Source of the DNA: Nitrospira sp. | Lineage (GTDB): Bacteria; Nitrospirota; Nitrospiria; Nitrospirales; Nitrospiraceae | Reading direction: 5' to 3' | NCBI GenBank assembly: GCA_024760545.1 | Contig: CP060501.1 | Coordinates: forward strand, 2,588,036 to 2,620,035 | Length of the DNA: 32,000 bases | Shown: positions 2,804 to 22,352 of the stretch, piece by piece | How the letters are laid out: each line of letters opens with the position of its first letter | Position numbering within the stretch: the first letter of the stretch is position 1 | Notes under the pieces: generated by a model | Database searches by the model: none | Told to the model about the DNA's origin: nothing | The model's input: only the letters and a program-made list of their open reading frames with translations | Translations under genes and position numbers: made by a program

Positions 2804-4090
2804 GTGCAGACGATGTCGACGGAAGACATTCCGCTTTCGCGGCGAGCCTTGTTGAAGACTATTGGTATAGGAGGATCAGCTTGGGCCTTGGCCCAAGCCT
2901 CCCTGGCTAAAGGGGAAGGAATGAGCGAGGCACCGAAGGCGTATGCAGGGAGGAAGGACGAGTTTGTCAATGTCCTGAGGGAACAGCGCGAGGAGACATT
3001 TGAAGACAAAGTCAGAGAGGGCATCGCGCTGTGTGTCTCTGGAGGAGGGTATCGGGCGATGCTCTTTCATCTTGGGACATTCTGGCGTCTCAACCAGGCT
3101 GGTCTGTTGCCTGAACTGCAACGCATTTCATCCGTCTCAGGTGGGTCAATCACGGCAGGGGTACTTGGCTACGCCTGGGGTTCCCTCCTCTTTAAAGAAA
3201 AGATAGCTCAGAACTTCATCGAAAAGGTGGTTGAACCAATCCGCAAGTTAGCCGGAGAGACCATTGATGTGGGCGCCATTATCAAAGGGATTCTTCTACC
3301 CGGGACAATCGGTCAGAAAGTGCGCGATGCCTATGAGGACTACTTGTTTGGTCATGCGACATTGCAAGATCTGCCAGATACCCCACGGTTTGTCATCAAC
3401 GCGACCAACATTCAATCTGGGGTCCTTTGGCGATTCTCGAAGCCCTACATGATTGACTATCGTGTTGGTCAGGTGAAGGAGCCAAACGTACTGCTCGCCA
3501 CAGCGGTTGCGGCGTCTTCGGCCTTCCCACCCGTGCTGTCTCCTGTGGAACTCGACCTAGAACCTGGCCAATGTGTGGACATGACAGGAACGGACCTTCA
3601 TCGAAAACCTTACACGAACCGTGTCGTACTGGGAGATGGCGGAATCTACGACAACCTGGGACTCCAGACAGTCTTGAGTTATGAGACCATTCTCGTCAGT
3701 GATGCTGGTCAGAAAATGGGTCCAGAGGAAGATCCCTCCGCCAACTGGGCATGGCATACGGTTCGGGTGATGAATGTCATCGACAATCAGGTGCGTAGCT
3801 TACGAAAACGACAAATCATAAAGGCCTACGAAACAGGTGAGCGAAAGGGGGCCTATTGGGGGATCGGAACAGATATTCGGAACTACGCCGCATCGAACAA
3901 ATTTGAGTGCCCGCTTGAGCAGACGACCGAATTGGCACATGTGCCGACGCGTTTGAAGGAGATCGAGCCGCAGCTTCAGGAGCGATTGATCAACTGGGGC
4001 TTCGCTGTATGTGATGCGGCGCTCAGAACCCATGTATGGCCCGATATGAACAAGCCCGATGCTCTCCCATATCCTGCAAGTGGGATTTAG
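2804..4090 (+). CDS. Patatin-like phospholipase with twin-arginine (Tat) signal peptide
   Basis: GGGYRA glycine-rich oxyanion motif, SVSGGSITAG nucleophile-elbow region, VLGDGGIYDNLG catalytic Asp (DGG) motif. The N-terminus SRRALLKTIGIGGSAWALAQASLA matches the Tat consensus S-R-R-x-[FL]-L-K. GTG at 2804; ATG at 2813 has better spacing to AAGAAAGGA. Only 35 nt downstream of the nuclease stop. Confidence 0.9.
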   Translation: MQTMSTEDIPLSRRALLKTIGIGGSAWALAQASLAKGEGMSEAPKAYAGRKDEFVNVLREQREETFEDKVREGIALCVSGGGYRAMLFHLGTFWRLNQAGLLPELQRISSVSGGSITAGVLGYAWGSLLFKEKIAQNFIEKVVEPIRKLAGETIDVGAIIKGILLPGTIGQKVRDAYEDYLFGHATLQDLPDTPRFVINATNIQSGVLWRFSKPYMIDYRVGQVKEPNVLLATAVAASSAFPPVLSPVELDLEPGQCVDMTGTDLHRKPYTNRVVLGDGGIYDNLGLQTVLSYETILVSDAGQKMGPEEDPSANWAWHTVRVMNVIDNQVRSLRKRQIIKAYETGERKGAYWGIGTDIRNYAASNKFECPLEQTTELAHVPTRLKEIEPQLQERLINWGFAVCDAALRTHVWPDMNKPDALPYPASGI

Positions 4091-8479: not shown

Positions 8480-8932
8480 TTAGAGAGCGTCCGATGTAGC
8501 CAGCTTCTGCAGGGCGTTTCGTAATGCGACCGCTGCGGTCTTCCCTATTACGATCTCATATTCCTGCTGGGCCTTACGCCACAAAGTTTTGCCATTGGCA
8601 TATTTGGCTGCACCCTTTGCGGTGAGCGCCACACGCCGTGTTCTTCCATCAATCGCATCGGGCTTTAGGGCCACTAAACCTTTGCGAAGAAGTGGCCTCA
8701 AGTTATGCCCGAGCGTTGAGCGGTCCATCACCAAGTATTCCGCCAATTCATTCATGGTCGGAGGTGTTGAGGAGTGTCTGCTGAGTTCCCCAAGCAATGC
8801 GAACTGAGTCGTCTTGAGTCCGGTACTCCTGAGTTGCGCATCATAGATAACCGACACGCGGCGCACGGCTTTTCGCAAGACTGTGCAGTAGCACGGAGAT
8901 TGTGACGATTGTTCCTTAACCATACAGCTCAT
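8480..8932 (-). CDS. MarR-family transcriptional regulator
   Basis: Winged-helix MarR pattern: GLKTTQFALLGELSRH..PPTMNELAEYLVMDRSTLGHNLRPLLRKGLVALKPDAIDGRTRRVALTAKG. The second ATG (MVKEQ, 8923) has better SD spacing (AAAGGA). Confidence 0.9.
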   Translation of the reverse strand: MSCMVKEQSSQSPCYCTVLRKAVRRVSVIYDAQLRSTGLKTTQFALLGELSRHSSTPPTMNELAEYLVMDRSTLGHNLRPLLRKGLVALKPDAIDGRTRRVALTAKGAAKYANGKTLWRKAQQEYEIVIGKTAAVALRNALQKLATSDAL

Positions 8933-8969
8933 CCTTTGTCATAGGTAGCACATGCCGCCGACCACAACC

Positions 8970-8998
8970 ATTATATGTCCTTCTCAAGCATTTTCCAA
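8970..8998 (-). promoter_or_regulatory. Candidate sigma70 promoter for the MarR gene
   Basis: On the minus strand: TTGGAA (8998-8993), a 17-bp spacer, then a perfect TATAAT (8975-8970). This lies about 40 nt upstream of the marR start. Confidence 0.5.
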
Positions 8999-9002
8999 TG
9001 GC

Positions 9003-9032
9003 TTGACAACAGATATTAGCGCGTAGTATATG
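9003..9032 (+). promoter_or_regulatory. Candidate sigma70 promoter reading toward sORF/amoC
   Basis: Perfect TTGACA at 9003-9008, followed 15-18 bp later by the -10-like hexamers TAGTAT (9024-9029) and TATATG (9027-9032). Confidence 0.4.
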
Positions 9033-9066
9033 GGCATATGCCCATATTATACAGGCATATGCCCCT
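9028..9066. promoter_or_regulatory. Candidate MarR operator: 20-bp perfect palindrome plus a second GGCATATGCC core
   Basis: ATATGGGCATATGCCCATAT at 9028-9047 is a perfect palindrome. A second core, aGGCATATGCCcc, lies at 9053-9066. The site overlaps the -10 region of the rightward promoter. Confidence 0.5.
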
Positions 9067-9096
9067 ACTTTAATGCCTTAACCCAGGAGGTTGTAT

Positions 9097-9240
9097 ATGG
9101 CGCTACCTATGCGATCACCCAATGCGCGACGATCTGGCGCTTTAGAAGACACAGCTGGAGATGCAATGCGATTCAAATGGGGGTGGTTAATGGGGTTAGC
9201 CCTCGGAGCTTTAACGGCCGCCTATCGTTATGCAGGCTGA
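9097..9240 (+). CDS. Candidate 47-aa small membrane protein (below the ORF-track length threshold)
   Basis: AGGAGG at 9085-9090, 6 nt before ATG 9097. Translation: MALPMRSPNARRSGALEDTAGDAMRFKWGWLMGLALGALTAAYRYAG, a basic/acidic N-terminus followed by one C-terminal hydrophobic helix. Stop TGA at 9238-9240, 54 nt before amoC. Confidence 0.4.
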   Translation: MALPMRSPNARRSGALEDTAGDAMRFKWGWLMGLALGALTAAYRYAG

Positions 9241-9294
9241 ACAATCGGAGCGGGAAGAAGAGTGTTCCTTAATCTCACCAAGGAGGTCTGAATC

Positions 9295-10122
9295 ATGGCG
9301 TCCTCAAATCAACCAAACAGTGATAGGGGGTATGACATTTCTGAGTGGTACGACTCGAAGCCGGTGAAGATCGGCTGGCTGGCGATCCTGGGGATCGGGG
9401 TCTTTTGGGTGCTGTATCAACGGGCATTCGGGTACTCGCACGGGTTAGATTCCATGACCCCCGAGTTCGACTCGGTGTGGATGGGGCTGTGGCGGTTTAA
9501 CATTTTGGCAAACGCCGTGTTCTTTGCCACGACGATCGGGTGGATCTGGGTGACGCGCGATCGCAACCTCGCGAACCTTGCTCCCAAATTGGAGCTGAAG
9601 CGGTACTTTTATTGGATGGGCTGGCTGGTGTGCTACATGTGGGGCGTGTACTACGCGGGCAGCTATACGTTAGAGCAAGATGCGGCGTGGCATCAGGTGA
9701 TCATCCGGGACACGAGCTTCACGGCGAGCCACATTGTGGCGTTCTACGGGACGTTCCCGTTGTACATCACGTGCGGCGTGGCGACCTACCTGTATGCGCA
9801 GACACGGCTGCCATTGTACAGCCAGGCCACCTCATTTGCCTTAGTGGCAGCGGTGGTGGGGCCGATGTTCATTCTGCCAAACGTCGGACTCAACGAGTGG
9901 GGGCATGCGTTCTGGTTCGTCGATGAATTGTTCTCGGCCCCGTTGCACTGGGGCTTTGTGACGTTGGGCTGGTGCGGGTTGTTCGGCGCGGCAGGCGGCG
10001 TGGCGGCGCAGATCGTGAGCCGGATGTCGAATCTGGCGGACGTAATCTGGAACAACGCGCCGAAGAGTATCCTGGATCCGTTCCCCAGCCAGGTGGGCCC
10101 AGGAGTCAAGACCGTCTACTGA
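9295..10122 (+). CDS. amoC: Ammonia/particulate methane monooxygenase subunit C (AmoC/PmoC family), singleton copy
   Basis: Near-colinear with bacterial AmoC. Conserved strings: [95 protein letters not shown] lies 9 nt upstream. No amoA or amoB in the window. Confidence 0.95.
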
Positions 10123-10342
10123 GAGGCTCACGGGACGAGGAACATCAGTCTAACCTTTAGGCTGTCAGCGGGTGGGTGGTTCTTGCATATGAAGGTTAAG
10201 CAGAGCCCCCACCCGGTTGGGTGGAAGATGTCAGTCTTGAGTAGAACGCTCTGACCGCAAAACACTTTGTTGAACCTCTTGGCAAGAGTATCACGGCGAT
10301 AAGCTATTCGACGTAACCGGACGAAATCGTGAGAGGCTGCCC

Positions 10343-12148
10343 TTGAAAACCAAGACCAAAAAACTACTGTTTTGGACGGTGATAGGCCTGTTCATGATCC
10401 TACTTCTGAATCTATGGACGATGGCGCCCCCGGTATTGGAGGAACAGGTCATTTTTAGCGATTTTATGGCCAAGCTCGACCAGGGCGACATCGAGAAGGT
10501 CATCATCAAGGGACATCAGATCAGCGGTGTCTTAAAAGATAATTCCCAGCTTCGCACCTACGCGGCGGACTATCCCGATCTCGTCCAGCTGCTGCGAGAG
10601 AAGCACGTTCAGATCGAAGTCAAACGATCCGATCAAAACCCCTGGTATATCCAATTTCTCATGACCTGGGGGCCCTTCGTGCTCTTTCTGGGCCTGTTGC
10701 TGTTCTTCATGCGCCGGATGCAGACCGGGAACGCGGCCTTGTCCCTCGTGAAGAGCAAAGCTCGCATGCAGACGGATGAACGGAAAAAGGTGATGTTTTC
10801 CGATGTGGCGGGAATTGATGAGGCGAAAGACGAAGTACAGGAAACGGTTGAATTTCTGAAGGATCCGCGAAAGTTCCAGAAGCTAGGCGGACGCATTCCC
10901 AAGGGTGTGTTAGTCGTCGGCCCGCCCGGAACTGGGAAAACATTATTGGCGAAGGCGATTGCGGGCGAGGCGGGGGTCCCCTTCTTCAGCATCAGCGGAT
11001 CGGATTTTGTCGAAATGTTCGTAGGGGTCGGCGCCTCTCGCGTGCGGGATATGTTCGAGCAAGCGAAAAAGCACGCGCCCTGTATCATTTTTATCGATGA
11101 GATCGATGCCGTCGGACGATCGCGGGGAGCAGGGCTTGGCGGCGGAAACGATGAACGTGAGCAAACGCTCAACCAATTGCTGGTCGAAATGGATGGCTTT
11201 GATACGGCAGAGGGCATCATTTTGGTTGCCGCGACCAATCGGCCGGATGTGCTCGACCCGGCCTTGCTGAGGCCAGGCCGATTCGATCGGCAAGTAACGG
11301 TGAATCATCCGGACCTTCGAGGTCGTTCTGAGATCTTGAAGGTGCATACGAAGAACGTCCCGGTCGCAGTCGACGTAGCGCTAGAGAAGATTGCGAGAGG
11401 GACTCCCGGTTTCTCAGGCGCCGATTTGGAAAACTTGGTCAATGAGGCTGCCCTCTGGGCTGCTCGTCAGAATAAAACTGAAGTCGGAATCGTAGACTTC
11501 GAAATGGCCAAAGACAAGATTATGATGGGTGCCGAGCGCAAGAGCATGATGCTCACGGACGAAGAAAAACGGATCACCGCCTATCACGAGGCAGGCCATG
11601 CCTTGATGGCCACATTACTGCCGGGCACCGATCCGGTTCACAAAGTGTCGATTATTCCAAGAGGCCGGGCATTGGGAGTCACCATGCAGCTGCCCACCGA
11701 CGACCGCCATAATCATTCTAAGGAGTTTTTGTACAACACGCTGGCGATTCTCATGGGCGGCAGAGTCGCAGAAGAACTGGTGTTCGAACATGTCACAACC
11801 GGTGCAGGTAACGATTTAGAGCGGGCAACGGACCTCGCGCGTAAAATGGTTTGCGAATGGGGTATGAGTGAAAAGCTGGGGCCGCTGACGTTCGGGCCGA
11901 AAGAGGAATCGATGTTTCTGGGGCGCACCTTTGGGACTAAGCGTGATCTCAGTAATGCAATGGCATTGGAGATTGATCTGGAAATCAAACGCCTCATCAC
12001 AGAAAACTACGAGCGGAGCAAGCGCATCCTGACCGAGCACAGGGTGACCTTGAAGGCGCTGGCGGATGCGCTCTTGGAAAAAGAGGTGCTGGATGCGCTG
12101 GAGATCCACCAGATTGTTTCCAACTGCTCCCTAACAGTCCTTGCTTAA
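10343..12148 (+). CDS. ftsH: ATP-dependent zinc metalloprotease FtsH
   Basis: N-terminal TM helix, periplasmic loop and second TM helix. Walker A GPPGTGKT, Walker [32 protein letters not shown], zinc site HEAGHAL. TTG start. Confidence 0.95.
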
Positions 12149-12772: not shown

Positions 12773-12817
12773 CTTTTAAGGCGAGGGCCCTGGGTTCGAG
12801 TCCCAGCCGGCTCACCA
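12773..12817 (+). repeat. 3' half of a tRNA-Lys(UUU) gene (att-like direct repeat, copy 1); not an intact tRNA
   Basis: Parses exactly as anticodon loop CTTTTAA, 3' anticodon stem GGCGA, variable loop GGGCC, T-arm CTGGG-TTCGAGT-CCCAG, acceptor 3' strand CCGGCTC, discriminator A, CCA. The required 5' partners (TCGCC and GAGCCGG) are absent upstream. Confidence 0.8.
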
Positions 12818-13066
12818 CATTGGACAAAGGAAGCTTCGGCGGCGAGATTGTGAAAAGGATAAGGCTCTGACACGGTCGGACTGAATAAGAACTTCGATAC
12901 ATAAAGTTCAGCTATCTTTTAACTACTTGCCCAAAATGCAGTATATAAGGCCTTCTGATAATCTTCTGAAAACCACCCCTTGAGTAACGAAGTTGCAATA
13001 ATGGCACCCCGCGATTAGGTCGCTGACAGTCATCCGTTTTCTGCTTGCCTCTAGCACAGGGCAGGA

Positions 13067-14215
13067 TCAGATCCTTCTCGATCGTTGAAGCGACTTTTTG
13101 GAACGTCGATCCGACTTTGCCTTAACCTTGTCTGAGATCTGTTGGAGCGCATCGGGAATGTCGTCATTGTAATCGTCGAAGGTAATGAGCTCGAGCCCAA
13201 GCGTCGCGAATCCTTTCTCGAATTCCTTTTCTTCATAGTGGTAGATGCGCTCAAGCAACTGTTGAATTTGTCTAGGTTCCTTGTCCAGCATCTTCATCCT
13301 TCCCTTCGGAAACTTGGACAAATACTCTTCTGCCTTTCGTCGAATTTGCGCAAGCTCCGGACTGGGGTCGGTAATCGTCTTGAATTGCGGTTTTCTCATC
13401 AGAATGTAGTTTCTGAGAGGCAGCGGCTGCTGGCGGATCGAGTCGAGAATCCTGCGTGTGTTCCGATCCGAGAGCGACAGTCCAATCATCAGGCCAATCG
13501 AGCTGGTCAACTGGCTGACCTGCACGACATTGCCCCAAAAGAGCGCATCTTGAAAGGCCCGGTTGTATTGGTCTTCTGAGAAAATAATGTCTTCGTATTT
13601 GACGTCTTCAGCTTGATACGGAATGTAGCCGTGTACGTGATAGATGGGAATCTTGTCTGCCTCAAGCTGCTGGTTCCCCTTGTAGATGACCTGGAAGTTC
13701 TTACGGTTCGCGAGATGTGTGAGCCCAAGCTCGACAAGGTTGTCGTAATTATAGGTGACGATCGATCGAAGTCCTTTCTTCTGCGGGATCGATTGTCCGC
13801 AACAATCAACGATAGCCTTCAATGTCGAGTTTTGGTTCACCAGGTATTCTGGCAACCCGGTGATGTCTGATCCGAAGGCCTGACGGCCCAGCCCGGCATA
13901 AAGCGTCGTACTCAACATGGTGATGAAGTCTTTGCCTTCATACCACTGCTTAATCTTGCGAATGATGATATCGAGCGGCTCGTTTTTCTGTTGCAACACC
14001 CATTCTGCCAGCGCGAATAGGTAATTCGGGTAGGGCCTCATGTTGTTGATGAAGTCTTCGTCATGGAGCGTCGTGAAATAGAGTGCCTGAACGAGTTCCT
14101 CCCAGCTGGGCAAGCCATTTGGTTTGGAAACGCCGGCCCCGAGGTAAAGACTCAGTCGCCCACTTTGAAACGCTTCCTTCAACGCAGGAAGGCTTCCGTT
14201 GAACTGTACGGCCAT
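13067..14215 (-). CDS. Stand-alone SIR2_2-type (sirtuin-like, predicted NAD+-consuming) protein
   Basis: LSLYLGAGVSKPNGLPSWEELV (Gly-rich NAD site), IVTYNYDNLVE (conserved Asn), IPIYHVHGYIP (catalytic His), LMIGLSLSDRNTRRIL. These are colinear with the ThsA/DSR SIR2 motifs. About 100 aa of uncharacterised C-terminus ends in a basic tail. SD AAGGAG 8 nt upstream. Confidence 0.85.
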   Translation of the reverse strand: MAVQFNGSLPALKEAFQSGRLSLYLGAGVSKPNGLPSWEELVQALYFTTLHDEDFINNMRPYPNYLFALAEWVLQQKNEPLDIIIRKIKQWYEGKDFITMLSTTLYAGLGRQAFGSDITGLPEYLVNQNSTLKAIVDCCGQSIPQKKGLRSIVTYNYDNLVELGLTHLANRKNFQVIYKGNQQLEADKIPIYHVHGYIPYQAEDVKYEDIIFSEDQYNRAFQDALFWGNVVQVSQLTSSIGLMIGLSLSDRNTRRILDSIRQQPLPLRNYILMRKPQFKTITDPSPELAQIRRKAEEYLSKFPKGRMKMLDKEPRQIQQLLERIYHYEEKEFEKGFATLGLELITFDDYNDDIPDALQQISDKVKAKSDRRSKKSLQRSRRI

Positions 14216-14807
14216 TTCTTTAACTCCTTGCTAGACCGTCCGGGCATGTCGCCACTTGATTACGCGAAATCAACAAAGTGACTAAGGCTTTGCTTTTCGA
14301 AGTGTGCTGCCCCCAGTAGACTTAGAAAGCCCCACGAGGCGGTTCCATTATAGCTTTTCCCGATGCCTGTCAAGAAACCGTGATCAGCGAGATGGTGGGC
14401 ATTGACAGGCATAACGAGGAAATTCTTGGGGAATGAGGACTTCAAATGACCTGAATTCTTTGGAGAAATTATCGTGCTCAACACTTACGACCTGTTCAAA
14501 TCTTAATTGAGGCGCGACACTCGCCACCGCCAGCAAGGCCGCCTTCCAGCTATGGTCAAAGGGTCTGACCTCATATACTTCTCACGAGAACAGGTTCGCT
14601 CGGCCGTTTCCCCCGTCACGCGCAAGACCAGCCGTTGTACCTGTGGGGCGTGATCCTGGTTCATGGTGATGATCAGGCCGGCCGCCCGCTCACCCTCGAC
14701 GATCTGAACGCCCAACATGGAATTGCAGATGTAACCTCTAGAACTCGGGCAACGACTAAGAAGGTAAGGATGATGAGACGATCATCCCTGAGGCCAAACC
14801 GGAGGCG

Positions 14808-15107
14808 ATGGTGGAAGAGAGCCTGCGACGGGGCATCACGTGGGAGGAGCTCGACGTCCGGGCATGGGAGGACGCGATGGTGACTCATGTCATACATGAA
14901 GGAACGCTTCCTGACCTTGAAGTTCCACTGTTGGACTGTGTGGGCAAGCGATCACCGGTGCTGTGCGATCACCAGCACCCCATGGTGGCAATCGTGGTGA
15001 GGCAACGCCCGGAAATCATTTACGCGGGGTACCCTGAAGCGGGCCTCTTCCATTGTCCGATATGCGACCAGACTCGCCGCGTAACATTCACGCTGTCACC
15101 ACGATGA
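14808..15107 (+). CDS. Hypothetical 99-aa protein with Cys/His cluster (weak call)
   Basis: ORF with GGAGG 2 nt upstream. Contains DCVGKRSPVLCDHQH ... FHCPICDQ, a possible zinc ribbon. No family recognised. Confidence 0.3.
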   Translation: MVEESLRRGITWEELDVRAWEDAMVTHVIHEGTLPDLEVPLLDCVGKRSPVLCDHQHPMVAIVVRQRPEIIYAGYPEAGLFHCPICDQTRRVTFTLSPR

Positions 15108-15495
15108 CCTTTGGAGAGCCTTCGAAGAAGAGCGGGTTGATGATGGGGCGATGGTATTGGCACCGGCGCTGCCAGGCGCTGAGCCATTCCCGGCCCATCC
15201 ACCCTTTCCTCTTCCTCATTTCTCCAATGCATCAAGCTGGACGATCAGTCTGAGGAAGTCAGCCCATAGCCGCACCTGACTGGGGGTTCCCATCCATACA
15301 GGCCAAAACCGCACGAGCACCCTGTGCGGAAAGCAAGTGCCGCAAACAGAGTGACGATGCAGACGCCTGTGTTTCTTCACTCTCTGCGTTGCTGCTGGCG
15401 ATCGGCCCGTTGGTCTGGCTCTTGCAAAAACATCGGGCTGGGTTTCGGCGCTGTCGAGACGACTCGGAAGGGCATTCGGTCGCTCCTCGTCAAGA

Positions 15496-15693
15496 ATGGA
15501 GTCGCGATCACAACGAACGGAGGCGTTCGTGGTTCTGCGCTGGTTCATTCTTCTAGGGTCTGTGATGTTGTTCCTCGGGCTCTTGTTGATCATCGTCGTC
15601 TGCCTAAATGCGCGGTCCAAGTCTAAGTCCAACTTCTTCCTAGTTCCTGTCGGCATGGCCTCTATCGGAATGGCACTTGGCCTTTCACTGTAG
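15496..15693 (+). CDS. Hypothetical 65-aa two-helix membrane protein (weak call)
   Basis: Two hydrophobic helices, FVVLRWFILLGSVMLFLGLLLIIVVCL and FFLVPVGMASIGMALGLSL. No obvious SD. Confidence 0.3.
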   Translation: MESRSQRTEAFVVLRWFILLGSVMLFLGLLLIIVVCLNARSKSKSNFFLVPVGMASIGMALGLSL

Positions 15694-15907
15694 GTGGTTC
15701 GGATGGTTGGCGCAGCTAATGGAGATTCCTTCCCTGCTCCACTGGCTGGATCTGCCAGGACGGCGGGGTGTCTCTCATTGGTTTCTCGTAAGGGACATCC
15801 CCGCACGACCATGCTTTCACCGGCCTTTCGCACATTGCCGGACACAGTCCAGTCGAATTCTCAAGCACGAGGCGAGTCCTTTCACAATCAAACCTAAGGA
15901 GTACCTC

Positions 15908-16111
15908 ATGGTTTGTACACGATGCGGTGGGTTTACAGTCCATGATTATTTCTACGGTGCTACAGACTACTTTGCTTGGCAATGTTTGGCTTTCCGCTGC
16001 GTGAATTGCGGAGCGATCAGTAACATTCAATCCTTCGATTCAAGTAACCCAAGCGGCACGGGCAGCACGAGCCATTCACGAGCTCGACATGCAAATGTGG
16101 CGCGGGGATGA
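15908..16111 (+). CDS. Small zinc-ribbon protein (67 aa)
   Basis: AAGGAG 6 nt upstream of ATG 15908. The MVCTRCGG...FRCVNCGA pattern is CxxC-x27-CxxC. The upstream part of the ORF-track call (15677) lacks support. Confidence 0.5.
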   Translation: MVCTRCGGFTVHDYFYGATDYFAWQCLAFRCVNCGAISNIQSFDSSNPSGTGSTSHSRARHANVARG

Positions 16112-16195
16112 GCGGACTATTCATGATCACGTCTACGTGCACGTAGCCAGGTGTCATTCCCTGTCGCTACGCAGACACGAAAAGGTGGGAGAATC

Positions 16196-16462
16196 ATGGC
16201 TACAGAAACGTTCATCGATCGAGTTCGAACTGTCGTCAAGGGACAGAGCACCGGTTGTGCCATGGAAGAAGTGGTGGCTCTCTGTCCGGACTTGACATGG
16301 AATCAGGTGTTCCTCGCCATTGACGACTTAAGCCGGAGCGGAGAGATTCGAGTCACATTGGATGCCGACAGCGCCTATAGAATACAGATTCATCGTCCCG
16401 CACCAGATACCAGTGCGAAGGATCTCGATGAATCGACATCGAGGTGTGTGGTGAGATGTTGA
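16196..16462 (+). CDS. Small hypothetical protein (88 aa), possibly winged-helix-like
   Basis: GGTGGGAG 5 nt upstream of ATG 16196 (MATETFIDRV). Its stop overlaps the next gene's start in ATGTTGA, which suggests translational coupling. Confidence 0.55.
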   Translation: MATETFIDRVRTVVKGQSTGCAMEEVVALCPDLTWNQVFLAIDDLSRSGEIRVTLDADSAYRIQIHRPAPDTSAKDLDESTSRCVVRC

Positions 16463-16992
16463 CTATCGCATCAGCCAAGGCCCTGCCAATGCGACTTCTG
16501 GTGGCAGTAGGCGAATCCGAGCGCGCGTTGCATGCTGTGCGATATGTGGGATCGCTGCTGCAGCGTAGACCGGATGTCATCGTCACGCTCTTTCATGTCC
16601 TCAAACCCATGCCACGCGGCCTATTGGAGCATGGGGGATCTGAAAATCCTGACATGGAAGCAGAGCTGAGCACCCGTTTGAAGGAAGATCAGGAGACGTG
16701 GAAAAAGCAGGAACGAGAAGCACAATGCCCGACTCTCGAACGAGCCCATGAACTTTTGATGCGGGCTGGCTTTGACAAGAGTCGAGTCGCCCTAAAGTTT
16801 GGACATGAGGACAACATTGCGAATGCCATTCTCGATGAAGCGAGAATGGGACAGCACGACACGATTGTCGTGGGCCGCACCGATACGCCTGGAATCACAC
16901 GCATCTTCAGCAGCGGCATCACTGACCATCTACTGCGGGATGCGCGAGGCTTGGTCATCTGGATTATTACCCCCCGCTTGAGACAACTGTGA
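16444..16992 (+). CDS. Universal stress protein (UspA family)
   Basis: USP pattern: MRLLVAVGESERALHAVRYV ... VTLFHV ... ILDEARMGQHDTIVVGRTDTPGITRIFSSGITDHLLRDARGLVIWII. The likely start is ATG 16456. Confidence 0.8.
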   Translation: MCGEMLTIASAKALPMRLLVAVGESERALHAVRYVGSLLQRRPDVIVTLFHVLKPMPRGLLEHGGSENPDMEAELSTRLKEDQETWKKQEREAQCPTLERAHELLMRAGFDKSRVALKFGHEDNIANAILDEARMGQHDTIVVGRTDTPGITRIFSSGITDHLLRDARGLVIWIITPRLRQL

Positions 16993-17241
16993 GGACGTGA
17001 GTTGAGAGTGAAGTCCGGATGTATCATTCAGTTTGACTGCGGGGGAATCCTCCGACCCGGATATCGGGATCTATATACAACGCAACATTCAGCATGAAAC
17101 TAAGAGAGTAACGTGGAGCGATAACCCGCAAGCCCTTCCTGTGGCTGCAGGATCACTTTTCAGACGTGTGCCGTTCGTAACGGAGCATCAAAAGCTTCTA
17201 TGAATTCACAATGATTTATCGGTGAGATTCGGGAGGAAGAT

Positions 17242-17454
17242 ATGGCGAATGACAAAAGAGTAACTGCGCAGGCGGCCGTGGCCAAGTTTGTATCTGCTGC
17301 CGGTCCCATCGAGAGACACCTCCTGGAAGGAAAGCCGCTCACGGACGTGGAGCTTGATTCCATTGCAAACATATCTTTAGGATTTCAAATGGCCATTGAG
17401 GTGTGGAAGAGAACCAACGGCCTGCCCATTAAACTGCGTCGGCGCCCTTCGTGA
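17242..17454 (+). CDS. Hypothetical 70-aa protein
   Basis: GGGAGG 5 nt upstream of the ATG. No family recognised. Confidence 0.5.
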   Translation: MANDKRVTAQAAVAKFVSAAGPIERHLLEGKPLTDVELDSIANISLGFQMAIEVWKRTNGLPIKLRRRPS

Positions 17455-17859
17455 GGGCCAAACAGCGCGACATTTGTCATGGCTCGCCGCTTTGGACCAG
17501 AGACAGAACTTTCAAACGACCTTCCTCCTCAGTCCACCTGCCTAGCCTCCGTCGTCTTGCATTAACTAGGCAACGAACAGGTCTAAGAAGCGAAACAACT
17601 CGCAAATCCATTCTCCCTTAAATTGGCTCTAGCGAACTCTTCATCAGCCTGCCGCAAGATGTGTGACGGTTCGTAACGATGCCGTTGCGACGGTGATTTG
17701 CACAACCAACGCATGTCTGTTTTGAATTGGAGTGATGACCACCGATGTGTTATCACGTTACAACTCACTGTGTGGCGGACGGTCCCCTTCCTGCAGTAAT
17801 CGCCATATCATGGAAATGACGTTTCGAGAACTATTACAACCTGTCGTGGAGACGTAACA

Positions 17860-18030
17860 ATGCCCAAAGCCCGCAGTGCTGGCCAGTGTTATCGATGCGA
17901 AGCCGGAGATCGAGTCAGGATGACCTTCATGACGTGTAGCCGCTGCCGCCGGTATTTCTGTAGTGAGCACGGTTCCTCGCAATTGGAACAATGCGAAACA
18001 TGCCTTGAGGGCGGCGAAGAGATGGACTAG
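17860..18030 (+). CDS. Candidate 56-aa Cys-rich zinc-finger protein (below the ORF-track length threshold)
   Basis: ATG 17860 with GGAGA 8 nt upstream. Translation: MPKARSAGQCYRCEAGDRVRMTFMTCSRCRRYFCSEHGSSQLEQCETCLEGGEEMD. The pattern CxxC-x12-CxxC-x4-C-x2-H-x7-CxxC resembles a cross-braced zinc finger. Confidence 0.45.
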   Translation: MPKARSAGQCYRCEAGDRVRMTFMTCSRCRRYFCSEHGSSQLEQCETCLEGGEEMD

Positions 18031-18157
18031 GGGATTAGCAATCAATCGGCGCCGAATCCTTTTGCGATGAACGCACCGCGGTTGTGTGACAGGCAGGGGA
18101 GCTATCGCGGCAAGTTGAGCGCGACTCCCTACGATCCCGGCTCCACGAGCAACTCCT

Positions 18158-18496
18158 ATGGCCGGTATGGCTTTCCGTTTTCCCCTGATTTCATCAGCAA
18201 TCCGCATGTCCAACGCTCACGATGATATTGAGGAGAAGGTGAAGCTCATCACAAAGTGCCTAGCACAAATCATCTATGTGATCGAAATCGGGGAATATGG
18301 TGAACTCGTGGTCTGCAAGGATGGCAACAAGGTCTTCGAATTTGGATGCTTTCGTCCTGCCATGGAAGCCATGCGCATTGACCACCTCCAGCCGTTCATG
18401 GAAACCAAGGTCATTCCGACGATGCTTCAGTATCCAGGTCAAATGATCTACTTTGGGACTCATGGGCTCAGCGTCACGAAAAGGCATGTATGCTGA
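18158..18496 (+). CDS. Hypothetical protein (96-112 aa)
   Basis: ORF with non-biased composition. Internal start ATG 18206 (MSNAHDDIEEKV) is possible. No SD and no recognised family. Confidence 0.35.
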   Translation: MAGMAFRFPLISSAIRMSNAHDDIEEKVKLITKCLAQIIYVIEIGEYGELVVCKDGNKVFEFGCFRPAMEAMRIDHLQPFMETKVIPTMLQYPGQMIYFGTHGLSVTKRHVC

Positions 18497-19235
18497 TACC
18501 CATAGGAAGCGGGTCATTGAGTAAAGAAGCCGTTGGCACAAGACTGCTTATCGCCTCGCCTCCAATGACGGGATTTGATCTGCTCCCCTGATTTTGGACA
18601 GGTCGAATCGTGTGTATGACGACTCACGCCGCACGAGACTCGGCTGGCGACTGCATGGCCAATGCACTGTGCTGCGCCTGGTGATTGTAGTGTTCGATTC
18701 ACTGCGGGAGTTGACGCGCGACGGCGTCCACTGTTTCCAGACTCACCTTAGAGACATGATCCCGCATGAAACTTCCAAAGAATCCCGATGTGGCCGACTG
18801 ATCAAAACTAGGAAGAAACCCTTCCTTCAGCGGTAAGCCACTGATTAGTCCTCAGGAAATCCTGGCGGGAGGCCGACAAAGTTCCCAATGTTCAGGCAAA
18901 ATCGTTTACAAGTGATAGCATTGATAGGATACCTAATGTTACACTCCACATCTCTGTACTCGAGAAGTGCTTATGCATCCTCAAGGCCAAAGAGCCCGGT
19001 CATCTGACGTGACTGAGGCTTGGGTGATGACCCCGATCGCGCGCCGGGAACAACCGAGAGATCGGTGTTGCTCCGCGGTGGTTTTCCGTACGATTGTCTC
19101 TCCTGATCTCCCCGGGGAGTGCTCCCGCTCTGTTCATGATATCTGTCCGGAACATGTGGGGCACCTGGCGACCCAGCTCTCGAAGTCCTCGGCGCGGGGC
19201 CTCGCCTTCGCTCCTGTCTTGAGGAGTCTGATCCG

Positions 19236-21992
19236 ATGAGGGGCAAGCTGAGCCGTCTCAAATTTGTAGGGATCGTCCTGGCTCTGGCCGCCGTCTATGT
19301 CGTCGCGGCCAAACTCGGACTGATGTTGGCGTTTGTGCACGCCAGCGCCACGGCGGTGTGGCCACCCACAGGGATGACGCTGGCCGCGTTCCTGATCTTC
19401 CGTTATCGGGTCTGGCCAGGTATTTTCCTCGGCGCATTCCTGGCCAACCAACTCACCGCTGGGTCGATCCAGACGTCACTTGGTATCGCAATGGGCAACA
19501 CGCTTGAAGGACTCATAGGCGCATATCTGATGAACCGATATGCCAATGGTCAGCATGCCTTTTCCTCTGCACCCGGAGTGTTGAAGTTCGCGGCGCTTGC
19601 CGGATTGATAAGCACCACCATCAGTGCCACCTTCGGAGTGAGCAGTCTTGCAGCGGGCGGCTATGCGAGTTGGGCCAACTACCCCTCGATTTGGATGACT
19701 TGGTGGCTGGGCGATATCGCAGGGAACCTCCTCGTGGCTCCCACCCTCGTCCTGTGGTCACAACGTCCACAGGTGCGATGGAATCGTGACCAGGCGTTTG
19801 AAGCAGCCGTCTCGATGGTCGTACTCCTTAGCATGGGCCTGGCCCTATTCACCAATGTAGTCCAAGGGACCATAAAGAATTATCCGCTCGTGTTTCTGGT
19901 CGTCGCGAGCCTTGTCTGGATCGCCGCCCGCTTCAGTGAGCGTGACACCGTCACCGCGACGTTCCTGCTTTCAGGGATCGCCATATGGGGCACCCTGCAG
20001 GGCTCCGGGCCCTTTATCAGGGAGTCGCCGAATGAGTCCCTCCTGGTCTTGCAATCCTTTCTGTGTCTCATCGGCATCATGAGCTTGGCGCTGGCGGCGA
20101 GTATTTCAGAGAGGAAACGGGCCGAGGCCGCCGTGCGTGACACGCATGACGCATTGGAACAGAAAGTGACAGCACGAACGAGCGACCTCTCCGCGGCAAA
20201 CCGGGAGCTGGAAAAAGAAGTGGCCGAGCGTCGGCACACCGAAGCGCGATTGCATGAGCGAACGGATGCATTACGCGAGAGCGAAGCCCGAGTGACCGCC
20301 TATGCGCAGGAGCTGGAGCAGAAAAACCGCGACCTCGACCGGGCGTTAGTCGAGGCGCAAGCCGCCACACAAGCCAAATCCGCCTTCCTCGCCGTCATGA
20401 GCCATGAAATTCGTACGCCCCTGAACGCCATCATGGGGTGTAACGGACTCTTGCTCGATACACTCCTGACTCCCGCGCAGCAGGACTACGCCGAGGATGT
20501 GCAGCGGTCTAGCGAAGCCCTGCTCGACATCATCAACGACATTCTTGATTTCTCGAAGTTCGAGGCGGGTAGATTGACGTTTGAGACGATCGATTTTGAC
20601 CTCCGGACCACCGTCGAAGAGGCACTGGATCTCTTTGCCAAACCGGCACAGCGCAAGGGCCTGGAATTGGGTTGTCTCCTGCATGCGGAAGTGCCCACGG
20701 CATTACGGGGGGACCCCGGCCGATTGCATCAAATCCTTATCAATCTTATTGGCAATGCGGTCAAGTTCACCCAACAGGGCGAAGTGATGATGCATGTGAC
20801 ACGGAGCACGGCGACCGCCGAGCGCACCCTGATCGAATTTGCCGTGGTCGACACGGGGATCGGCATTGCCCCCGAGGTACAGGAGCGTCTGTTCAAACCG
20901 TTTACCCAGGCGGACACCTCGACCACGCGCCAGTTTGGCGGCACCGGACTGGGCCTTGCCATTTGCAAACAGCTCGTGGAACAGATGGGCGGGCAGATCG
21001 GCATAGAGAGTACGCTCGGTCAAGGAAGCACGTTCCGGTTTACGGTGTGGCTGACCCACCAGCAGACGCGCGCGACAGCATTGCCAAAAGGGTCTCTCGC
21101 GGGCCGGCGAGTCTGCATTGTGGATGACAATGCCACCAACCGACGTATCCTGGAACAATATGCGTTTCAGTGGGGTCTCCAAAGCGCCACCGCCTCGGAT
21201 GGATATGAAGCCCTCACTCTGCTGAAAGGAGCGGCGGCCCGAGGCGAACCCTTTGATGTGGCGATCCTCGATTTGCAGATGCCACGCATGAACGGACTGG
21301 AGTTGGCGCAGAAAATCAAATCTGATCCCCAGCTGACGGCTATCCCCCTGGTCTTACTGACCTCAATGGGAATGCGGGGGCAGGCTGAAGAAGCGAAACA
21401 GGTCGGGATTGCCGCCTACCTAACCAAGCCCGTCCATCGCACGGACTTATACGACTGTCTGACTATGATTGTGGACAGGCCGGCCCAGGCATCCCCTGAC
21501 GTACTGGAGGTGGGGGCCGCGAGTCGCCCCCGCGATGTGTTGGTGACCCGTCATGTCATTAAGGAAGCCGCCAAGGCGGCACGCCCCCGTATTCTCGTGG
21601 CAGAGGACAATATTGTGAACCAGAAAATCGCGGTGGTTCTGTTGGAAAAGCTCGGTTACCGGGCCGATGTCGTGGCTAACGGACTCGAAGCCGTCGACGC
21701 GGTCGCTCGAATCAGGTATGCCTTGGTCTTGATGGATTGCCAAATGCCCGAGATGGATGGTTGGGAGGCCACGGCGATGATCCGAAAAGAGGAAGGGGCA
21801 CGCGGAAGCCACCGGCTTCCCATCATCGCGATCACCGCGAACGCCATGCCTGGGGACCGTGAAAAGTGTCGGAAAGCAGGCATGGACGATTATCTCGCTA
21901 AGCCGGTGACGCTCGACGAGATTCGAGTCCTCTTGGCCCGATGGATTCCGGGCCATTCCGCATCGGCTGTACAAAAGGAGTCTGTGTCGTAG
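19236..21992 (+). CDS. Hybrid sensor histidine kinase: MASE1 membrane sensor, coiled coil, HisKA, HATPase_c, two receiver domains
   Basis: The N-terminal ~300 aa are polytopic with MASE1-like [33 protein letters not shown]-box [15 protein letters not shown] boxes [32 protein letters not shown]1: [32 protein letters not shown]2: [29 protein letters not shown]. Confidence 0.9.
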
Positions 21993-22307
21993 GAAAGTTG
22001 ATCCTGTTTTCTCTCTCGTCGATCATCTCAGAATATCTACCGATGTCTCCATTGAGATGATGTGGTCTTGGAGTACCGCGCATTCCCTTGTGCGTCTCTC
22101 CATAAGCTCTTCCTCGATTGGACAGGCCATATCGTTCATTTCTTCGGCCAGCTGCGCCAAGTCGTCAGACTGAGGCTGCTCTGGCCGCGTTCAGTGCACC
22201 GCGTCGCTGGGCCCATATAGAGAATTCTTGCTCACTGTATCCATGAGAGTTATTCATCGGTACCAATATACTCCCATCGGGAGATACCAATCATTGAATG
22301 TTTGTAA

Positions 22308-22352
22308 CTTTTAAGGCGAGGGCCCTGGGTTCGAGTCCCAGTCGGCTAACCA
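22308..22352 (+). repeat. 3' half of a tRNA-Lys(UUU) gene (att-like direct repeat, copy 2); not an intact tRNA
   Basis: 43/45 identical to 12773-12817. Both differences fall in the acceptor 3' strand (TCGGCTA versus CCGGCTC). No complementary 5' half upstream. Confidence 0.8.

Follow-up and report, generated by a model that had tools for sequence, protein, structure and literature searches.

A stand-alone SIR2_2 protein at the edge of a tRNA-Lys island segment in Nitrospira, a candidate sensor-less single-gene NADase defence

How could a lethal NADase that has no sensor stay off, and then turn on? The question is raised by a gene in a 32,000-nucleotide stretch of the genome of Nitrospira sp. 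(GenBank contig CP060501.1, positions 2,588,036 to 2,620,035; the whole of this stretch is called the window below), which encodes a stand-alone 382-residue protein of the SIR2_2 ('SIRim') type (Table 1). An earlier note on this DNA, made from the letters alone, had taken the gene for either a single-gene defence acting through NAD+ depletion or an orphaned effector. The protein belongs to the defence-type SIR2 class and lies outside every named system in the PADLOC-DB 2.0.0 and NCBIfam libraries. We favour, at a probability of about 0.5, the reading that it is a minimal, sensor-less SIRim NADase, encoded by an accessory defence gene that would act alone and would be switched on by a change of assembly or by direct binding of a trigger.

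The open reading frame (ORF) and its assignment to the SIR2_2 type, both proposed in the earlier note, are borne out, with Pfam SIR2_2 (PF13289) matching residues 151-279 at 52.5 bits (E 7e-14), above the gathering threshold of 24.5. The motifs that had been pointed out (GAGVS...GLPSW, TYNYDN and YHVHG) are all present, as LGAGVSKPNGLPSWEEL, VTYNYDNL and IYHVHGY, with core residues that do not vary among 40 aligned members of the family. They include a predicted catalytic asparagine and a predicted catalytic histidine, and the DSR2 residue to which the latter aligns is the one mutated in the deposited DSR2(H171A) structures. Neither in the protein nor in its neighbours did scans with Pfam, PADLOC and NCBIfam find a SLOG, HerA, TIR or prokaryotic Argonaute (pAgo) match or a long sensor region, in agreement with the absence of a SLOG domain, a DSR-type sensor region and an adjacent HerA, TIR or pAgo gene claimed at first reading. 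The matches in PADLOC-DB 2.0.0 (ThsA, LmuA, PDC-S25 and Dsr1) are partial and at the level of the domain, which, together with a Dsr1 score far below its cut-off, upholds the claim that the protein fits none of ThsA, DSR1/2, SIR2-HerA and SIR2-APAZ. The gene is also richer in AT than the core genes, as had been judged by eye, if only modestly (GC content 0.50, against 0.54-0.59 in the neighbouring genes and 0.537 in the window).

In the AlphaFold2 (AF2) model of the whole protein (predicted local distance difference test score, pLDDT, 87.8; predicted template-modelling score, pTM, 0.84), seven strands (residues 21-25, 149-154, 174-177, 189-193, 240-244, 269-274 and 341-346) are accompanied by helical insertions, and no zinc-binding module is present, which is the combination expected of the SIR2_2/'SIRim' type; the architecture of ThsA and FAM118 is a seven-stranded, zinc-free central sheet (PMC12700824). 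The top matches of this model in a Foldseek search of the PDB are only ThsA, KomC and DSR2 (E 8e-11 to 1e-7), with a template-modelling (TM) score of up to 0.70 when normalised by the 264-277 residues of KomC, and at the level of sequence profiles the protein matches DSR2, KomC, ThsA and the SIR2 of short-Ago systems, as well as, weakly, FAM118B. The C-terminal part of about 100 residues, with its lysine/arginine-rich (K/R) tail, had been singled out in the earlier note as the only candidate sensor or regulatory part. Such a region does exist, but the role proposed for it does not stand: residues 286-361 are conserved throughout the family (alignment of 40 members); the confidently modelled structure has them as helices, strand seven of the central sheet and a last helix; they align with the end of the SIR2 domain of ThsA; and they are found also in relatives that carry N-terminal sensor-like domains. 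For these reasons the region is not a separate sensor. Between the bare proteins and these fused relatives, only short loop insertions at 113-124 and 302-318 differ. The tail itself occurs in P0001 and, partly, in P0002 only, is missing from the fused relatives, and begins just after the point at which nucleotide homology with the nearest relative (locus L003) ends. Because only residues 362-382 are lineage-specific and disordered, the 382-residue protein is, as modelled, a bare SIR2 domain.

To our knowledge, all characterised SIR2 defence effectors are controlled either by an attached sensor (SLOG, the DSR C-terminus, STAND or APAZ) or by a partner (HerA, KomB, LmuB or pAgo), and our literature searches turned up no SIR2 defence protein of this size that stands alone. 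Among the known systems, ThsA of type I Thoeris (PDB 6lhx, 8bto/8btp, 7uxt and 8wc0) is the best match both in PADLOC (55.6 bits over the SIR2 part) and by fold (Foldseek E 8e-11), and has in common with the window protein the seven-strand zinc-free fold and the same arrangement of the catalytic Asn and His. However, the identity is about 14-18%, the window protein has extra helices in the small subdomain and, whereas ThsA reads glycocyclic ADP-ribose (gcADPR) via its C-terminal SLOG (STALD) domain, the window protein ends where the SIR2 fold ends; lacking a SLOG, it therefore cannot read gcADPR in the known way. As for ThsB, the other component of Thoeris, no TIR gene was found in the island and PF08937 (ThsB_TIR) is absent from the genome, in which there are six TIR_2 proteins elsewhere, the nearest about 270 kb away. 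KomC of Kongming (264 residues; PDB 8zsf, 9v0g and 9xvc) is likewise a SIR2 protein without an extra domain, gave the highest target-normalised TM-scores (0.63-0.70) and, according to PDB titles, forms helical filaments, but it functions as part of the KomBC complex, a reader of dITP; the window protein is about 100 residues longer, with a sequence match mainly in the N-terminal GAG region, and no gene for KomB (HAM1-like) or KomA was found in the island, nor among the two genes on either side at 38 loci of the family.

DSR1 and DSR2 are also single-gene systems and have a homologous SIR2 domain (DSR2 profile, E 1.7e-11), but the DSR proteins have 1000-1200 residues and a large C-terminal sensor that binds the phage tail tube protein and is absent in the 382-residue window protein; the NCBIfam Dsr1 model, whose cut-off is 1400, gives 18.3 bits, and the PADLOC Dsr1 match covers residues 12-61 only. 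The profile of LmuA-SIR2 (Lamassu) reaches 50 bits in PADLOC over the core, partially (positions 114-238 of 433), and neither LmuB (SMC-like) nor LmuC is found as a neighbour in the island. For SIR2-HerA (Nezha), the PADLOC 'SIR2' profiles give only 13.6 bits and no HerA ATPase is adjacent, while for SIR2-APAZ (SPARSA) neither the protein nor its neighbours have an APAZ or PIWI match. These three resemble the window protein in that their NADase effector domain is of SIR2_2 type, but they need LmuB/LmuC, HerA and a short pAgo, respectively. PDC-S25, a PADLOC candidate, is matched with 31 bits at profile positions 17-251 of 528 only, short of its full length. Outside bacteria, the vertebrate FAM118B/FAM118A proteins (SIRal; PDB 9r3e and 9r0p) are stand-alone, sensor-less SIR2_2 proteins of about 350 residues, although, besides being eukaryotic, they are very distantly related (weak profile match, E 0.05) and have a weak NAD-processing activity tied to Toll-like receptor signalling. 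The activity of FAM118 depends on filament formation, and FAM118B alone is almost inactive (PMC12700824).

The lack of a sensor is a property of a whole clade. A word-index search gave 719 homologues, nearly all of 355-370 residues at a coverage of at least 90%, from Bacteroidota, Acidobacteriota, Thermodesulfobacteriota, Planctomycetota, Gemmatimonadota, Verrucomicrobiota, Pseudomonadota and one archaeon. An exhaustive profile search returned 832 representative clusters at E <= 1e-30, headed by about 75 clusters (50% identity, above 240 bits) of bare full-length proteins and continuing with many proteins of 440-670 residues in which the SIR2 module starts at about residue 140-360. In a maximum-likelihood (ML) tree of 76 modules, the bare proteins form one clade on a long stem (36/36 rows bare; Shimodaira-Hasegawa-like approximate likelihood ratio test, SH-aLRT, 100), in which the window protein is placed, with full-length homology over about 360 residues and no N-terminal domain. 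This clade lies inside a 51-row clade (SH-aLRT 97) together with two fused clades, one of Mrr_N-SIR2 proteins of about 600 residues and one of proteins of about 500 residues with an N-terminal domain of about 180 residues, and a TIR_2-SIR2 fusion branches further out; the tree, from a quick search and rooted at the midpoint, does not establish whether domains were gained or lost.

These fused relatives (PD-(D/E)xK-like-SIR2, about 500 residues; Mrr_N-SIR2, about 600; TIR-SIR2, 978) are the closest by sequence, with 26-33% identity across the whole module, C-terminal helices included, but carry an N-terminal, probably nucleic-acid-reading domain, whereas the window protein has none. The domain of about 180 residues bears a D...(I/V)E(V/I)K motif in the alignment, and its AF2 model (pLDDT 81) has as best matches restriction endonucleases, Can2 and Mus81/XPF-type nucleases, weakly (E 1e-3 at best), which is consistent with, and not proof of, a PD-(D/E)xK domain. 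The nuclease-like-SIR2 proteins of about 500 residues (L054, L057, L059, L065, L069, L070, L073, L075 and L092; at about 9450-10990 in most) come from Pseudomonas, Aeromonas, Bacteroides and Methylococcaceae, have the Lys of the motif replaced in three cases, and correspond to no named PADLOC-2023 system; a fusion of SIR2 with a restriction nuclease has been named as a predicted defence protein in a preprint (10.1101/2025.01.08.631966). The Mrr_N-SIR2 fusions (584-619 residues, Bacillota; L060:6800-8605, L082:9059-10918 and L090:9149-10903) and the TIR_2-SIR2 fusion (978 residues, Acidimicrobiia; L071:5982-8918) look, from their domain make-up, like candidate single-gene defence architectures.

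If the protein carries no sensor, a partner gene could supply one. For the partner search, ORFs were called by a simple longest-ORF procedure in 80 genome loci, and proteins at most 7 kb from the SIR2 gene were clustered by BLAST. No partner is conserved: the top neighbour cluster is present in 8 of the 80 loci only, and the immediate neighbours vary in size, strand and spacing. At 38 core loci, the 125 genes up to two positions away from SIR2 fall in 114 Pfam families, each found in at most three loci (the Pfam and PADLOC neighbour tallies give no per-locus statistics), and a universal conserved partner gene was rejected on both counts. No neighbour recurs in more than three close loci except an S8 peptidase (PADLOC subtilase and IetS profiles), which 5 of the 12 closest loci have within about 5 kb. 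Given that the stand-alone form makes up a conserved clade while its neighbours are not conserved, the gene is not a component orphaned by accident from a multi-gene system, and of the two options offered in the earlier note the single gene is favoured and the orphan is not.

A split system would nevertheless be compatible with part of these data. The bare SIR2 would then be an effector whose sensor or regulator is provided by a variable neighbour or an unlinked gene, and in the window, with the partner missing or elsewhere, it would be silent or activated in trans. The fused N-terminal sensor-like domains of the neighbouring clades speak for it, as do KomC, a bare SIR2 of 264 residues that requires KomB (PDB titles), the TIR_2 proteins found elsewhere in the genome, and the recurrence in some subclades of co-directional neighbours (the 2-TM/CBS-like proteins described below, SLATT_2, DnaJ and the L100 cluster). 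However, no neighbour exceeds the frequencies given above, many loci, that of the window included, have no co-directional neighbour at operon distance, and nothing 5' of the window gene resembles the recurrent neighbours; moreover, the protein lacks any known ligand-binding domain, SLOG included, that could take a TIR-made signal, the genome has no ThsB_TIR, and the solo copy is under strong purifying selection. We therefore regard a split system as unlikely.

Some of the subclade-specific neighbours deserve description. A protein of about 250 residues, with two N-terminal transmembrane (TM) helices and a weak CBS-like C-terminal part, adjoins the SIR2 gene in three loci (L004:7206-7949, L017:6983-7750 and L026:11103-11882), upstream in two and downstream in one, and could be a subclade-specific partner; other neighbours of this kind are a SLATT_2 protein (L032) and a DnaJ-domain protein (L024 and L027). 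At L100:513-9092, the SIR2 gene is the last of a tight co-directional cluster of seven genes (CHAP/PG-binding, 400 residues, Peptidase_S8, 656 residues, Amidohydro_2, M19-like and SIR2), and its start overlaps the preceding stop; S8, Amidohydro_2 and cell-wall hydrolase genes are also near SIR2 in L004 and L017. Outside the L004/L017/L026 trio, no remote similarity was found among the upstream neighbours of about 250-290 residues, or between them and the 1.7 kb upstream of the window gene. A link through patatin was also discarded, as the patatin gene of the window (2804-4090) and the SIR2-adjacent patatins of L004 and L017 have 24% identity, at domain level only.

The distribution of the gene points to lateral transfer. 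A search at E <= 1e-10 of 24 genomes from other species of the genus and of 16 from the same order did not find the protein, and in the ML tree it nests in a Bacteroidota subclade with Ferruginibacter, Bacteroidales, Chitinophagaceae, Cryomorphaceae and Adhaeribacter (SH-aLRT 98, 97 and 98), its identity to the Ferruginibacter protein being 68% across phyla. The neighbouring AmoC, by contrast, falls in a 90%-identity cluster with proteins of Nitrospira sp. metagenome-assembled genomes, which agrees with Nitrospira as the host but, the amoC gene being itself island-borne, makes that assignment no more than probable. Nucleotide homology with the nearest relative, L003 (83%), is limited to the ORF and a leader of about 100 nt, and the conserved unit is therefore a single gene; the ratio of nonsynonymous to synonymous substitution rates (dN/dS) against the nearest relative is 0.116, and the gene is thus kept by selection and is no relic. 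Judged from these sequence comparisons, the gene is horizontally acquired, accessory and under purifying selection. As for its vehicle, no phage matches were obtained, no fold match in BFVD reached E <= 1e-3, and the sole full-length plasmid match has 28% identity. The four other SIR2_2 proteins in the genome have no significant BLAST similarity to the window protein beyond the domain. Another pair of SIR2_2 proteins, both large (open frames of 1277 and 947 residues) and encoded about 3 kb apart elsewhere in the genome, at G000:C1:3629814-3636281 (L011 and L013), may represent a DSR-like or other SIR2 defence locus.

This distribution also bears on the idea of a non-immune NAD-dependent enzyme, be it a deacylase, an ADP-ribosyltransferase or a regulator of NAD+ levels or stress, that sits on the island by chance. 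Canonical sirtuins are deacylases, the window protein has no trigger-sensing domain, and many homologues lie amid housekeeping and stress genes (Usp in the window and at L016/L006, HSP20 and PMSR). All significant sequence and fold matches, however, are to the immune SIR2_2 branch and none to CobB-type sirtuins; no zinc module is present, there is no conserved substrate or partner gene, and the extremely patchy distribution, with its high identity between phyla, is a better fit to accessory conflict genes than to metabolism. An explanation of this type appears improbable to us.

The island in which the gene lies could be reconstructed from its attachment (att) sites. An att-like tRNA half-site about 250 bp from the gene, and the position of the gene at an island edge, had both been claimed, and both are real: the 45-nt copy of the 3' end of tRNA-Lys(UUU) sits 249 bp from the SIR2 stop codon, and SIR2 is the first gene of island segment III. 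By whole-genome search, the full tRNA-Lys(UUU) is located at G000:C1:2,537,028-2,537,103 and is followed by three direct 45-nt att copies at +34 kb, +64 kb and +73 kb, the last two being those at 12773-12817 and 22308-22352; the tandem array of islands spans G000:C1:2537028-2610387, and positions 1-22352 of the window are its right part. Segments I and II each open with a minus-strand tyrosine integrase gene right after the att copy, the two integrases being 67% identical. In segment III the SIR2 gene holds the place of the integrase, and a tblastn search that used the island I and II integrases as queries detected neither an integrase nor a remnant of one in that segment. Island I (34 kb; loci L097 and L098 lie in the array) opens with a tyrosine integrase, RadC and a Zot-like P-loop protein, a gene content that suggests a filamentous-phage-like or integrative and conjugative element (ICE)-like element. 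Island II (29 kb) contains a singleton amoC with MarR and ftsH neighbours (8480-12148); as this tRNA-Lys island has an integrase, the element that carries the extra copy of amoC is potentially mobile.

Such an island could be in decay and the gene a functionless relic, as segment III has lost its integrase, its right att copy is degenerate and 1.7 kb of it is without convincing genes. Against this, the ORF is intact with all invariant residues kept, it is preceded by a Shine-Dalgarno sequence and a promoter-like element, and an identical protein is found on contigs from two other samples; above all because of the dN/dS, we consider a relic highly improbable. The promoter-like TTGACA/TATAAT pair was spotted by eye, as the consensus scan for promoters and terminators, in which nothing was listed, needs a spacer of 16-18 nt and thus leaves out a pair spaced by 15 nt. 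A scan of the window with Rfam and a tRNA search reported no structured RNA and no tRNA.

The region of about 1.7 kb on the 5' side of the gene (14216-15907) has no convincing gene and no integrase remnant; its small ORFs have no Pfam or PADLOC match, and no Rfam match was found in this stretch. Two of these ORFs (14260-14484 and 14503-14718; 74 or 71 residues) bring up the possibility of an addiction module, in which the SIR2 protein would be a toxin-antitoxin-like toxin that stabilises the island and a small upstream ORF its antitoxin. Both are co-directional with the SIR2 gene and are called as genes on one metagenome contig, and active SIR2 NADases are toxic. On a second contig, identical over the compared stretch, they are uncalled, however; they belong to no matched family and overlap the promoter-like element, homology with an 84%-identical relative stops about 100 nt 5' of the ATG, and other members have unrelated upstream genes. 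Because the small upstream ORFs are not conserved, an addiction role is disfavoured and strikes us as very improbable indeed.

Table 1. Positions in the window of the SIR2_2 gene, its predicted functional elements and the island segment that carries it
Feature	Position	Strand	Basis
Stand-alone SIR2_2 ('SIRim') protein gene, 382 aa	13067..14215	-	Intact ORF, ATG start, no stops
Predicted catalytic Asn156 codon, YNYDN motif	13748..13750	-	Invariant in 40 family members; aligns to DSR2 N133 (profile alignment)
Predicted catalytic His195 codon, HVHG motif	13631..13633	-	Invariant; aligns to DSR2 H171 (profile alignment)
K/R-rich tail, residues 362-382	13070..13132	-	Lineage-specific; predicted disordered, pLDDT 54-61
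Shine-Dalgarno AAGGAG, 8 nt 5' of ATG	14224..14229	-	Read from sequence
Candidate promoter-like TTGACA-15 nt-TATAAT	14347..14373	-	Spotted by eye
att copy, 3' 45 nt of tRNA-Lys(UUU), left border of island segment III	12773..12817	+	Identical to 3' end of full tRNA
Island segment III, 9.5 kb, integrase-less: SIR2, small ORFs, Usp, MASE1 hybrid histidine kinase	12818..22307	.	att borders, gene scans
Degenerate att copy, 2 mismatches, right border of segment III	22308..22352	+	Whole-genome search

Returning to the reading that we favour, that of a minimal NADase acting alone in defence, we infer its enzymatic activity, its role and its mode of activation as follows. The protein would bind NAD+ through its GAGxS and GLPxW elements and would cleave it by means of Asn156 and His195; inactive in healthy cells and activated on infection, it would provide an abortive-infection-type defence through NAD+ depletion. 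The switch would probably be a change of oligomeric state or the formation of filaments, as in ThsA, KomC, Avs5 and FAM118B, for all of which filament-dependent activation is known (PDB titles; PMC12700824). The trigger would be a phage-derived protein or metabolite, binding the enzyme directly because there is no separate sensor domain. The gene is an accessory one that moves between phyla as a single-gene unit, and its present place is a segment of the tRNA-Lys island array that is old and has no integrase.

The genomic context of the homologues, which the earlier note had suggested as a check, returned no conserved partner gene and a divided picture of the surroundings. At some loci the neighbours are defence-like, including nSTAND1 with SIR2_2 (L003), patatin, S8 and an MTase-HD protein (L004), SLATT_2 (L032), TIR with EVE (L102) and the subtilase/IetS-like S8 peptidase of the close loci. 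For the entire SIRim clade, defence neighbours are reported to be enriched 12-fold, and on the basis of this neighbourhood enrichment the clade has been argued to be immune (Bonhomme et al., 10.1101/2024.09.18.613514). Several observations nevertheless weigh against a defence role for the window protein. Many homologues are located among housekeeping genes (FabH, LolA-like, AIR-synthase-like and ABC transporters), and it is thus not demonstrated that the bare clade is enriched in defence islands; segment III has no PADLOC defence gene besides SIR2; no sensor domain or trigger is identifiable for the window protein; and, by analogy with FAM118B, some SIR2_2 proteins may be weakly active or may not be NADases at all.

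A broader proposal concerns the bare clade of about 360 residues, and we advance it tentatively, as a possibility that we consider doubtful. The clade would be an immune system that consists of one protein and works autonomously, and the smallest defence module based on SIR2, in which the catalytic domain itself senses infection, e.g., by trigger-induced filaments or by binding of a phage protein or metabolite to the conserved helical subdomain; it would have arisen from nuclease-like- or Mrr_N-fused ancestors by loss of the sensor, and would be a bacterial counterpart of FAM118. The bare clade is sensor-less and partner-less, and yet it is conserved, under purifying selection and mobile across more than 10 phyla. 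PADLOC-DB 2.0.0 misses this family as a system, and, if validated, the family would add a single-gene system to the defence catalogues. An answer to the question of its control would define the minimal requirements for SIR2-based immunity and could inform the study of sensor-less eukaryotic relatives such as FAM118.

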